In this document: piece by piece, positions 40,629 through 41,919 of the stretch
How positions within the stretch are numbered: the stretch's first letter is position 1
Layout of the letters: each line of letters begins with the position of its first letter
From: Candidatus Peregrinibacteria bacterium
GTDB lineage: Bacteria > Patescibacteriota > Gracilibacteria > UBA1369
Direction: 5' to 3'
DNA: 64,000 nt
NCBI GenBank assembly: GCA_963708185.1
Contig: OY970195.1
Location: forward strand, 1,373,034-1,437,033
Program-made: the position numbers and the translations under genes
The notes under the pieces: model-generated
Told to the model about the DNA's origin: nothing
What the model saw: only the letters and a program-made list of their open reading frames with translations
Database searches by the model: none

Positions 40629-40743
40629 GCAGGGGGATTTTTTAGGTTTGGTTGAGATTTTTTTCATGCTGCTGTGTGTACCGTGGTTTATAGCTGGCCT
40701 TTGGTGGGCGTAAGGGGTCCACGGGCTAGCCCTCGGCGATGAA

Positions 40744-40773
40744 TTGACGGTAAATCTTGAAGGCGGGTATAAT
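40744..40773 (+). promoter_or_regulatory. Integrase promoter TTGACG-18-TATAAT
   Basis: Near-consensus sigma70 boxes upstream of the integrase leader. Confidence 0.7.
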
Positions 40774-40778
40774 TCGGG

Positions 40779-40844
40779 TGGCAATTCCACTCTCGCAGCT
40801 TCTGCTGCCGGCCCCCATCGAGTCTTCTTTGGGGGCCATTTTTT
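40779..40844 (+). repeat. Structured leader/terminator, copy 1 (48 bp identical to 41872-41919)
   Basis: GCAGC-TTCT-GCTGC hairpin, then GGCCCCCA...TGGGGGCC-ATTTTTT. Confidence 0.8.
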
Positions 40845-40853
40845 GATATTTTT

Positions 40854-41666
40854 ATGGAGCATTTGCTGGATAAACTTGTTGATGAGCTCAAGCTTCGTGG
40901 TTTGAGCCCCCAGACCATGAAGGCCTACCGTTTGTGTGTCCGGCATTTTTTGCGTTTTTTGCTGAAGGATTTTGATGTTTTGGATGTTGAGAAGATCAAA
41001 GCTTTTTTGCTCCACCGGCAGCGGCTTGGCGCCGCCCCGCAGACGGTGAATCTGTATTTGAACGCCATCAAGTTTTTTTACCGTCATGTGATCCGTGCCA
41101 ATGTGGAAATTCCGCTTCGGTTTGCCAAGCGGCCGCAAAGGCTTCCCGTTGTTCTTACTCATGAGGAGGTGTTGCGGGTGATCGGATCTTTGAAGAATTT
41201 GAAACACAAACTGCTTATTGCTCTTGCCTATGGCGCCGGGCTCCGTGTTAGCGAGGTGGTCCATCTGCGGGTCGGGAATGTTGATTTTGAGGCGAAGCTT
41301 TTGTATGTCCGCCAGGGCAAGGGGCGGCGTGACCGGACCACACTGCTCCCGGAAAAACTTGAAAACTCTTTGAAGATTTTTTGCGGGGGCAGGGAGCCGG
41401 ATGCGTTTGTTTTTGAAAGCGAACGGGGAGGCAGGCTGACGTCACGATCCGCCCAGAAGGTTTTTGAATCGGCGCTGCGCCGCGCGGGTATTCTGAAAGC
41501 CGCCACGTTTCACAGCCTGCGCCACAGTTTTGCCACCCATATGCTGGAAAACGGCGTGGACATCCGCTACATCCAGGAGCTTCTCGGGCACCGCAATATC
41601 CGCACGACCCAGCGCTATACCCAGGTGACCGCGCTGGCACTCAAAAATCTTAAAAGTCCGCTGTGA
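40854..41666 (+). CDS. Tyrosine recombinase, integron-integrase-like (SAM-like N-domain) but lacking the IntI insertion
   Basis: LRGLSPQT..AY, LPVVLT.EEV, YGAGLRVSE, GKG, HSLRHSFATH, LLGH, RYTQV; only ~30 aa between KGxxDR and the RSAQ helix. Confidence 0.88.
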   Translation: MEHLLDKLVDELKLRGLSPQTMKAYRLCVRHFLRFLLKDFDVLDVEKIKAFLLHRQRLGAAPQTVNLYLNAIKFFYRHVIRANVEIPLRFAKRPQRLPVVLTHEEVLRVIGSLKNLKHKLLIALAYGAGLRVSEVVHLRVGNVDFEAKLLYVRQGKGRRDRTTLLPEKLENSLKIFCGGREPDAFVFESERGGRLTSRSAQKVFESALRRAGILKAATFHSLRHSFATHMLENGVDIRYIQELLGHRNIRTTQRYTQVTALALKNLKSPL

Positions 41667-41730
41667 ATTTATGAGGTTTTTAGAAAAATTTCATGGAGGA
41701 TAGGTATTGTTGAAACAGCTGGCCTTTGGT

Positions 41731-41802
41731 GGGGATAGCAGGTTTGCAAGAATGGAATCGTCATTCCGATTCTTAGGGGTTCAAGTCCCCTTATCTCCAC
41801 CA
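41731..41802 (+). ncRNA. tRNA-like mini RNA (tmRNA TLD / tRNA-Ala-like) without a canonical anticodon arm
   Basis: GGGGATA/TATCTCC acceptor with G3:U70, discriminator A, CCA; T-arm AGGGG-TTCAAGT-CCCCT. Confidence 0.6.
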
Positions 41803-41820
41803 CGGGCCAGCCTTAATAAG

Positions 41821-41919
41821 TTGACCGTTAAAAAGGAGAAGGCTTATAATATTACTGACGATTCCATTCTTGCAGCTTCTGCTGCCGGCCCCCATCGAGT
41901 CTTCTTTGGGGGCCATTTT
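41821..41919 (+). ncRNA. Promoter TTGACC-18-TATAAT plus a ~64-nt terminated sRNA (copy 2), antisense to the tRNA-like RNA
   Basis: 41856-41874 is the exact reverse complement of 41745-41763; ends in a GC hairpin plus T tract. Confidence 0.6.

Follow-up and report, generated by a model that had tools for sequence, protein, structure and literature searches.

A putative mini-tmRNA and its predicted antisense RNA form a conserved two-RNA unit around an integrase gene in a Candidatus Peregrinibacteria genome

Introduction

A gene for a tyrosine recombinase of the integrase type is enclosed by two similar copies of a short noncoding unit in a 64,000-nucleotide (nt) stretch of a Candidatus Peregrinibacteria genome (assembly GCA_963708185.1, contig OY970195.1, positions 1,373,034 to 1,437,033 of the forward strand). 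This whole stretch is hereafter called the window, and positions are given in its own numbering. The original prediction for this locus described each unit as a transfer RNA (tRNA) mimic, or its remains, followed by a promoter and by a small terminated RNA antisense to the mimic. It proposed an all-RNA pair, either toxin/antitoxin-like or working as an attenuation switch, that may gate the integrase. The questions raised by the locus are what these two RNAs are, whether they belong together and what ties them to the integrase. The answer that we hold to be probable, without calling it firm, is that the locus comprises two copies of a conserved two-RNA module: a mini-tmRNA, i.e., a reduced relative of transfer-messenger RNA (tmRNA), and its own antisense RNA, which in one copy doubles as the leader of the integrase gene. 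The RNA pair as such is well supported by the comparison of related genomes presented below. The window's own genome, to which we refer as G000, is a single contig of 1.44 Mb, and its nearest named relatives are metagenome-assembled genomes of Peribacteria, Peregrinibacteria and Gracilibacteria.

Results

Two Units, One Intact and One Decayed, Flank the Integrase Gene

All of the elements of the two-sided arrangement could be located in the sequence, each of them on the forward strand. The open reading frame (ORF) of the integrase (40854..41666, 270 amino acids) stands between two direct repeats of 75 nt (40768-40842 and 41845-41919) that are 88% identical and share their last 48 nt without a change (40795-40842 and 41872-41919). 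An exact 17-mer, AGCTGGCCTTTGGTGGG, occurs at 40692 and again at 41717. Each unit carries a candidate sigma-70-type promoter, TTGACG-18-TATAAT in copy 1 (40744..40773) and TTGACC-18-TATAAT in copy 2 (41821..41850), with 11 of 12 positions matched in both cases. The spacing agrees with the 16-18 nt expected of such promoters, and the hexamers are kept in homologues, in whose alignment the spacer of the unit 1 promoter varies. As predicted, a putative RNA of about 64 nt starts 5 nt behind each promoter and ends in a GC hairpin with a T tract. In copy 1 this hairpin, GGCCCCC-14 nt-GGGGGCC, lies at 40810-40837 and runs into ATTTTTT; in copy 2 its positions are 41887-41914 and the tract behind it is ATTTT. 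Both copies display the pattern of an intrinsic terminator, a G+C-rich hairpin plus a T tract, which in copy 2 has only 4 T. The terminator search itself listed 40822-40836 and 41899-41913, the inner parts of the full stems, and the promoter and terminator calls are alike pattern-based.

In unit 2, a predicted mini-tmRNA precursor helix, composed of an outer stem around a tRNA-like domain, begins 50 nt past the integrase stop codon and spans 41717..41812 (99.3 bits to the covariance model R1 introduced below). The predicted mature domain occupies 41731..41802, its hairpin P2 lies at 41747-41774, and the presumed target segment (41745..41763) comprises the 5' strand and the loop of P2. Small RNA 2 (41856..41919) is made up of a 19-mer (41856-41874), a small hairpin (41872-41885), the terminator-like hairpin (41887-41914) and ATTTT, and is not followed by a gene on the same strand. 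The complementarity reported between the 19-mer and the central hairpin of the mimic proved exact, with 19 of 19 Watson-Crick pairs between 41856-41874 and 41745-41763. By our own arithmetic, the chance expectation for such a match is about 5e-8 (some 1.5e4 position pairs divided by 4^19).

Unit 1 shows the collapse that had been described for it. Within 40692..40733, the halves of the outer stem are present with 10 nt between them (CGTAAGGGGT), the 19-mer (40779-40797) differs from that of copy 2 at 4 positions, and the T tract stops a few bases before the integrase ATG (40854). Leader 1, the predicted 5' untranslated region of the integrase (40779..40853), contains the antisense-type 19-mer, a small hairpin GCAGC-TTCT-GCTGC (40795-40808), the hairpin at 40810-40837 with its conserved 14-nt loop, and the T tract. 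Compared by eye with a homologue from genome G001 (L022 749-842), unit 1 resembles a mimic of the G001 type minus two internal segments, and the start of leader 1, TGGCAAUUCC, matches a G001-type hairpin. Judging from this comparison, unit 1 is a decayed unit and not a designed variant, standing beside an intact and perfectly matched unit 2.

The Mimic Resembles the tRNA-like Domain of tmRNA

The mimic begins with a predicted 7-bp acceptor stem (GGGGAUA/UAUCUCC) with G3:U70, followed by a short D-like segment and by an 11-bp hairpin, capped with CGUC, at the place where helix P2 of a tmRNA would lead to the messenger part. It continues with a T arm (GGGG-UUCAAGU-CCCC) and ends in A73 and an encoded CCA; there is no anticodon arm. 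The flanks form a further stem of 12-13 bp that prolongs the acceptor stem, and the 96-nt precursor has a predicted folding energy of -52.7 kcal/mol (z = -6.5), which none of 200 shuffles equalled. Only three ordinary tRNAs in the window were called by ARAGORN and by Rfam with its gathering thresholds, both of which missed the mimic, and Rfam 15 holds no family for the mini-tmRNA or for the small RNA. In a permissive Rfam scan, the tmRNA model (RF00023) aligned end to end with 41731-41802 (33.5 bits, E 2.7e-11, gathering score 47), about 310 central model positions being replaced by 15 nt. Neither the resume codon nor the tag frame of a messenger domain was found in the mimic.

The ends of the mimic (5' GGGGAU...CAAGAAU; 3' AUCUCCACCA) resemble those of G000's own tmRNA, a full-length gene (123.6 bits, G000:C1:1209539-1209952), and a single gene for SmpB is also found elsewhere in the genome. 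Since the ends are tmRNA-like while a normal tmRNA and one SmpB exist at other places, the mimic is, in its predicted structure, a tRNA-like-domain-only paralogue of tmRNA, neither a tRNA nor a full tmRNA. What stands of the label "tRNA mimic" is the tRNA-like shape; the label itself is better refined to the tRNA-like domain of tmRNA with alanine identity.

Mini-tmRNA Genes Are Widespread in One Order

Relatives of the mimic were found first by DNA and motif searches, and R1 was built from nine aligned copies. In this alignment, 34 pairs are predicted, 15 of them with compensatory changes; G3:U70 is present in 9/9 copies and the T arm is invariant. R1 gave 50 matches in 20 of the 36 genomes of the taxonomic family (up to 6 per genome). 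At E <= 1e-6 it hit 72 of the 151 genomes sampled from the order, and at E <= 1e-9 it hit a single genome (G193) among 150 others sampled across the phylum. These counts rest on one genome per species, the loci are related, and R1 detects the intact orientation only. Among 51 sense-strand R1 loci, G3:U70 was seen in 49, A73 in 48 and the encoded CCA in 41. The two departures from G3:U70 are register problems, arising from an altered T loop and an insertion. Acceptor positions 4-7 vary compensatorily across the loci, and the feature that is conserved is, to all appearances, the alanine identity set. Because G3:U70, A73, CCA and the T arm are kept, the mini-tmRNA most likely undergoes tRNA-like processing and charging with alanine.

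Most units occupy chromosomal positions common to three genera each, either convergent with prfB or beside a transketolase-like gene. A second, lower-scoring group of tRNA-like-domain-only genes (41-57 bits to R1) comprises L125, L126, L143-L156 and G000:C1:101559-101649 (-), the last being the only such copy in G000 and lying outside the window. These genes keep G3:U70 and mostly ACCA, their hairpin loop is often UUGACA, and no complementary RNA lies near them.

One locus of genome G020 (L138 1501-1595) has its T loop replaced by CCCCGCAAAACGGGG, yet its 17-nt partner is still perfect; possibly this mimic has ceased to resemble a tRNA. Of 16 pattern matches in viral contigs, none scored above 32.9 bits to R1, and none is a clear member of the family. 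The metagenome scan yielded 8 stretches, of which 2 duplicate loci of genome G023, and L163 and L167 were dropped as unrelated coding matches.

A Predicted Partner Small RNA with Its Own Promoter

For 50 loci (one further locus was lost to a contig end), we scored the best ungapped duplex between the mimic interior and the 150 nt downstream. The score lay between 28.5 and 50 in 29 of the 50 loci and at 22 or less in the remaining 21; the complement served to label the 29 loci, not to select them. As controls, the 150 nt upstream never scored above 22, and for non-cognate pairs the median was 17.5 and the 95th percentile 24. The duplexes are 14-22 nt long in all of the 29 loci except L139, whose best window reaches 30 nt, and the paired sequences are completely different between loci. 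Partnered loci are mostly the higher-scoring R1 matches, and no high-scoring mimic devoid of a nearby small RNA was seen among the analysed loci. The predicted all-RNA pair, in which the 5' end of the small RNA is antisense to the central hairpin of its own neighbour, accordingly recurs at 29 of 50 loci.

A -10 hexamer precedes the first complementary base in 26 of these 29 loci (by 3-7 nt in 25 and by 13 nt in one; exactly TATAAT in 21), and TTGnnn stands 17-18 nt from it in 25 of the 26. In compact units, where the -10 box directly adjoins the outer stem, the T stem and the acceptor 3' strand meet at the TTG. The TTG of the small-RNA promoter then falls within the acceptor strand of the mimic, and such topology indicates that the two RNA genes are interleaved. 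In units with a separate TTGAC box, the same junction may be TTA or TCA. Behind the complement come a hairpin of 4-5 bp, the motif (G/A)CUG(C/U/A) with A-rich sequence (22/29) and a strong hairpin with a T tract. Promoter position and terminator are conserved across partnered units, and G193, which belongs to a different family of the phylum, shares the layout, with TTGACA-18-TACAAT, a complement of 16 nt that pairs perfectly, and a terminator. In L123, L134 and L144, the small RNA has, as noted by eye, 15-18 nt complementary to the T-stem/acceptor 3' strand including CCA, which replaces or adds to the hairpin complement.

The (G/A)CUG(C/U/A) motif with its A-rich continuation could prompt the idea of a split tmRNA, in which the small RNA contributes the messenger portion, a short tag included, and GCUGCA holds the resume codon; two-piece tmRNAs joined by pairing are indeed described in an excerpt of PMC3590771. 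Yet no reading frame is preferred in the 22 small RNAs with the motif, a stop codon falling within the transcript in 7, 7 and 8 of the 22 for the three frames. Moreover, the pairing register implies that the small RNA leaves the helix at the end closest to the tRNA-like core, the wrong end in comparison with tmRNA. We therefore disfavour a split tmRNA and give it hardly any weight.

The Two RNAs Covary Across Homologues

Covariation of the 19-mer with the mimic had been named in the original prediction as the test on which the pair depends. We examined it in a MAFFT alignment of 20 compact units with 18 intermolecular pairs, using 500 shuffles and slid registers as controls. Standard pairs fill 92.8% of 359 cells, compared with 69.5% after shuffling of partners and 32-45% after sliding by 1-3 columns. 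Changes on both sides were found in 14 of the 18 pairs, and the number of cells with double changes is 93, where shuffling gives 26.6 on average. The covariation score of 0.730, as opposed to 0.227 for shuffled partners and 0.10-0.17 for slid registers, was reached by 0/500 shuffles. The covariation holds.

The 28 distinct duplexes contain 460 Watson-Crick pairs, 25 G.U pairs and 8 A.C mismatches (symmetric transition scoring, binomial p = 0.0046). As G.U exceeds A.C, it appears that sense RNAs pair with each other, rather than that an inverted repeat is kept identical in the DNA.

Predicted energies agree for the intact unit. RNAcofold gives the dimer of mature mimic and small RNA 2 at -73.1 kcal/mol versus -55.8 for the monomers; for the mature mimic and leader 1 the values are -58.4 and -54.5, a gain of only about 4 kcal/mol. 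The predicted dimer contains a helix of 19-20 bp and a second 7-bp contact, in which CUGCUG of the small RNA meets UAGCAGG of the mimic at the acceptor/D junction. When set against the true tmRNA, the small RNA did no better than shuffles (-41.2 versus a mean of -41.4 and -40.7 versus -42.0 kcal/mol), other targets being unsearched, and the genuine tmRNA was rejected as its target on this duplex energy.

These values also bear on the thought that the mimic is only a handle for processing or stability, cut by RNase P or RNase Z to set transcript ends, or a sponge for a small RNA with other targets. Processing handles of tRNA-like shape (mascRNA) and sponges made from tRNA spacers (3'ETS-leuZ) are known. 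In compact units, the mimic is apparently co-transcribed with the small-RNA region, with no terminator between them, and the window's mimic follows closely on the integrase stop codon. Alanine identity and an encoded CCA, which processing alone would not require, are nevertheless kept at most loci, and the true tmRNA, the one other target tried, is no better matched than shuffles. A handle or sponge seems improbable to us, if less so than a split tmRNA.

The Integrase Is Linked to the Module in One Lineage

The integrase matches Pfam Phage_integrase (152.3 bits) and, at its N-terminus, SAM_4 (61.6 bits), and reaches 217.9 bits against NCBIfam XerA_Arch, short of the cut-off of 220. Its structural relatives are PDB 4A8E (E 1e-44; XerA-like, P. 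abyssi), 5HXY (Thermoplasma XerA) and 2A3V (V. cholerae IntI4). The catalytic R...HxxR...H...Y motifs are visible by eye in the alignment, and IntI models match in two stretches only. G000 has one other tyrosine recombinase.

Such an integrase accompanies the module in 5 of 48 mimic-holding sources, which together account for the 51 sense-strand loci: the window, G001, G002, G044 and G023:C11. The order is constant, namely mimic, promoter, leader and integrase. With L166 from the metagenome scan, there are 6 loci in all, and the proposal of a small-RNA-type RNA as a terminator-containing integrase leader is borne out at each of them. In 43 of the 48 sources, no such recombinase lies within about 1.5 kb. 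Integrase homologues of 35-69% identity abound in many lineages, and 0 of 78 of their loci in other lineages have a mimic; there were two weak hits (23.4 and 21.8 bits), one of them a tRNA. Given these 78 loci, and given that most units stand at ordinary chromosomal sites, the association with the integrase is best seen as one lineage-specific use of a wider module.

The terminator-like hairpin deserves a comment. Across the integrase-type units and four units that lack an integrase (window copy 2, G023:C15, L164 and L169), its stem covaries and its 14-nt loop, AUCGAGUCUUCUUU, hardly changes; the loop is almost invariant in 7 aligned units of 5 genomes and in L162, L164, L166 and L169. Judged from these alignments, a terminator loop would not need such conservation. 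One near-match to the loop's reverse complement lies in the window, at 40199-40212(-), which is within chance expectation. In the integrase-linked mimic of G044 (L127 1501-1636), an insertion of about 40 nt sits in P2, and the leader matches the hairpin only partly.

As 6 loci have a terminator-like hairpin that separates the pairing segment from the integrase ATG, one could suppose an attenuation in trans resembling that of T-boxes. The leader would sense the mini-tmRNA, possibly its charging state, and the pairing would decide on read-through into the integrase or another gene. A gene for a NERD-domain-like protein (by eye) behind the small RNA in L124 and L137 would suit this scheme, and the complement to the acceptor 3' strand and CCA in L123, L134 and L144 is, by eye, loosely like the T-box/NCCA contact. 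Against it, most units have no same-strand gene behind the terminator, e.g., those convergent with prfB. No antiterminator fold was seen, the hairpin is intact in the predicted dimer, and no T-box is among the 7 Rfam matches at E <= 10 in 40300-42200. Finally, the integrase's own mimic is deleted in the window, and leader 1 fits the remaining one at only 15/19 positions. We judge such a switch unlikely, albeit the least unlikely of the rival explanations.

It is also conceivable that the element acts as DNA, the complementary arms being inverted repeats round a promoter that serve as an invertible switch or as a recombination site of the adjacent recombinase. In a variant of this idea, the conserved hairpin is the core site, in the manner of a dif site of 11 + 6 + 11 bp; by eye, GGCCCCCATCG-AGTCTT-CTTTGGGGGCC can be drawn as a site of 28 bp. 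The promoter of every unit does stand between inverted arms, 5 of the 48 sources and one further metagenome locus have an adjacent tyrosine recombinase, the window's identical 48-bp copies lie in direct orientation around the integrase, and layouts of the type unit-gene-unit recur. A DNA repeat would, however, lack the strand bias of the arm mismatches (25 G.U against 8 A.C), and the arms are embedded in an RNA with covarying tRNA-like pairs and an invariant G3:U70. The 43 sources that have no recombinase nearby and the 78 homologue loci devoid of a mimic speak against it as well. In G002, the module has no second copy within 3 kb behind the integrase and is placed 7-8 kb from dnaA, whereas a dif site would be looked for elsewhere, in the replication terminus region; in G000, the GC skew, being monotonic, is uninformative on this point. 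Truncated units, in addition, have three different breakpoints. Taken together, the DNA-level element and its dif-like variant have a small probability in our estimate, below that of a T-box-like switch and slightly above that of a handle or sponge.

Genomic Surroundings and Decay of the Units

The flanks of the integrase module are not syntenic among G000, G001, G002 and G023. In G001, G002 and G044, groES lies 3' of the integrase, and in G002 the groES promoter starts right after the integrase stop codon. There, the module terminates a variable region of about 10 kb, and G000 has no module at the corresponding site. The window's module is situated inside a variable stretch of its own (about 30.5-42.8 kb), which runs as far as tRNA-Val and tRNA-Arg; there, synteny with G002 and G004 is restored. 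An island integrated into tRNA-Val was considered and rejected, as a second copy of the tRNA 3' end is absent from the window.

Units that have lost the mimic and kept the small RNA are represented by copy 1 of the window, the second-unit stub of L104 and L169. Because their breakpoints differ, the loss of the mimic looks like decay rather than site-specific recombination.

Two other loci, L124 1501-2654 (G051) and L137 1501-2715 (G015), have two units around a gene for a membrane protein of 245 amino acids, NERD-domain-like by eye. Their order, unit-gene-unit with about 1.06-1.12 kb between the units, echoes the unit-integrase-unit of the window. The flanking units are identical in G051; in G015 they are diverged, each with its own cognate partner.

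Upstream of the module, the window has a cluster at 37302-40357 composed of a LexA-like S24 peptidase (37302-37967), a C5 cytosine methylase (37971-39038), an ORF of 367 amino acids with no assigned function (39033-40136, (-)) and a small HTH_3 protein (40133-40357); by its predicted proteins, it looks like a restriction-modification cassette with a controller. The A+T-rich spacer from the helix-turn-helix gene to unit 1 harbours, at 40400-40500, two similar G+C hairpins, GTTCCGCC-GATA-GGCGGAAC and a relative, each followed by CCATAT-T-CCCCT and an A run. Downstream, the ORF at 41941-42702(-) matched no Pfam family, Pfam being the only protein search made. Two inverted repeats of the TTAGCAC-N9-GTGCTAA type, similar to CIRCE (controlling inverted repeat of chaperone expression), precede groES in G002 (L108 7330-7460) and G000 (L157 4915-4990), and in G002 they begin about 25 nt past the integrase stop codon. 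The cumulative GC skew of G000 climbs monotonically over all of the 10-kb bins and shows no turning point; dnaA, at 263 kb, is away from the contig start.

Discussion

How the Module Might Work

We can speculate on how such a module might work. Its first gene would encode a mini-tmRNA, the tRNA-like domain alone inside a long precursor stem, from which it would be cut like a tRNA and then charged with alanine by alanyl-tRNA synthetase. The second gene, with its own sigma-70-type promoter just behind the first or overlapping the 3' end of the first, would yield a terminated RNA of about 64-65 nt, whose first 15-20 nt are predicted to pair with the apical hairpin of the neighbour. The small RNA might nucleate on the loop, displace the 3' strand of the hairpin and perhaps open the acceptor/D junction, with which its GCUGC motif would make the predicted second contact. 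The mini-tmRNA would thereby be unfolded, masked or marked for cleavage: either its charging or its binding of SmpB would be blocked, or a long duplex would be made for RNase III. Isolated tRNA-like domains enter stalled ribosomes in vitro, and charged mini-tmRNA together with SmpB could do the same, much as has been proposed for the jakobid form described below. The small RNA would in that case set the amount of alanyl-mini-tmRNA that reaches SmpB and stalled ribosomes. The data agree just as well with reverse control, in which the mini-tmRNA titrates the small RNA.

In the sub-lineage of the window, the small RNA would be the leader of the integrase, as the integrase gene sits directly behind the small-RNA terminator; the enzyme would then be made by read-through only, at a low level. 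In unit 1 of the window, the mini-tmRNA is deleted and the unit would still drive the integrase. A switch on the integrase that is operated by the mimic, the gating of the original prediction, is possible but not supported. The folds give no sign of it, only 5 of the 48 sources have this integrase nearby, and the integrase's own mimic is gone in the window. As for the toxin/antitoxin behaviour suggested originally, it is a reasonable analogy for the pair.

Several points weigh against the two-RNA module as we describe it. Shuffle and binomial tests overstate significance, the loci being related, a relatedness that the slid controls retain. Some of the G.U and A.C counts come from weak duplex ends, and several A.C stand in the tails of two long alignments. 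The full precursor shows no gain in RNAcofold (-82.6 versus -82.6), which we take to be uninformative because the program cannot represent invasion of a hairpin while the acceptor stem is closed. For the mimic itself, the window offers a promoter that is weak or unclear, the only candidate by eye being a TATTGT box 6 nt upstream, with no -35. The terminator hairpin is left unchanged in the predicted dimer, and the conservation of the loop in integrase-type units is unaccounted for by our model. Lastly, the 21 of 50 mimic loci that have no complement nearby, mostly lower-scoring and including the copy at 101 kb of G000, imply that a mini-tmRNA does not always need a partner, and this weakens the toxin reading.

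It is tempting to go one step further and to suppose a new class of RNA genes: alanine-charged, tRNA-like-domain-only paralogues of tmRNA that act on stalled ribosomes and do not tag (by rescue, addition of alanine or poisoning of trans-translation), each checked by a private antisense RNA. They would constitute an RNA-only control or addiction module of ribosome rescue, co-opted in one lineage for integrase expression through the small-RNA terminator only. We put this forward as a tentative proposal, which may well turn out otherwise.

In free-standing bacterial genomes, the reduced tmRNA of the window type coexists with a full tmRNA and is multi-copy. Roughly one in two of the genomes that were sampled from one order of the candidate phyla radiation has it, and in the majority of high-scoring copies it is coupled to a predicted, dedicated antisense RNA. 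This raises the questions of what an alanyl tRNA-like domain with no message does on the ribosome, why it should be opposed by an RNA, and whether an integrase can be tied to the state of ribosome rescue. At least 28 distinct duplexes also make the loci a natural collection of RNA-RNA pairs that co-evolve, and R1 could be used to annotate genes that are missed by ARAGORN and by Rfam at gathering thresholds.

Comparison with Known Systems

To our knowledge, tmRNA occurs in one-piece and two-piece forms, and in a reduced form devoid of the messenger part only in jakobid mitochondria. In the literature that we covered, with subscription journals and supplements outside its scope, there was no description of bacterial tRNA-like-domain-only paralogues of tmRNA or of antisense partners for them. 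For the module as a whole we could find no described counterpart.

Regarding the protein, the window's integrase belongs with the XerA-like and integron-integrase-like recombinases, matching 4A8E, 5HXY and 2A3V and staying 2 bits under the NCBIfam XerA cut-off; its homologues in other lineages of the phylum, unlike it, come with no RNA module. T-box leaders (RF00230), like leader 1, are 5' leaders with a terminator that pair with a tRNA-shaped RNA. Leader 1 differs in that it has neither a T-box sequence nor an antiterminator and would engage a hairpin through 15-20 nt instead of making a codon-anticodon contact.

Antagonism between RNAs is familiar from the antisense antitoxins of type I and from the RNA-toxin (type VIII) systems SdsR/RyeA and CreT/CreA. 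Here too, a small RNA has extended complementarity to an adjoining RNA gene, a genome holds several paralogous and mutually specific pairs, and orphan copies of the presumed neutraliser outlive their partner. In contrast to those pairs, the window module encodes no toxic peptide, its genes lie in tandem on the same strand and do not overlap in antisense, and many units of its type occupy conserved chromosomal positions; the likeness is one of pairing logic.

Bacterial tmRNA (RF00023) aligns with the window RNA at both ends of the model. The window RNA departs from it in having no resume codon, tag frame or pseudoknots, and its 33.5 bits fall short of the gathering score (47). Closest to it among described RNAs is the reduced tmRNA of jakobid mitochondria. 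According to an excerpt of PMC3590771, it has no mRNA-like domain, a G.U at acceptor position 3 and an A discriminator, and its role is thought to be limited to the freeing of stalled ribosomes (PMC3590771, citing Jacob et al. 2004). Loss of the messenger part and the alanine identity elements are, as far as this excerpt goes, common to both. The same source presents the jakobid RNA as the sole tmRNA of the organelle, mostly in two pieces (permuted) and with a CCA added after transcription. The window RNA, on the other hand, is in one piece with an encoded CCA, and RNAs of its type occur in 1-6 copies beside a full tmRNA, lie inside a long precursor stem and have a cognate antisense RNA at 29 of the 50 loci.

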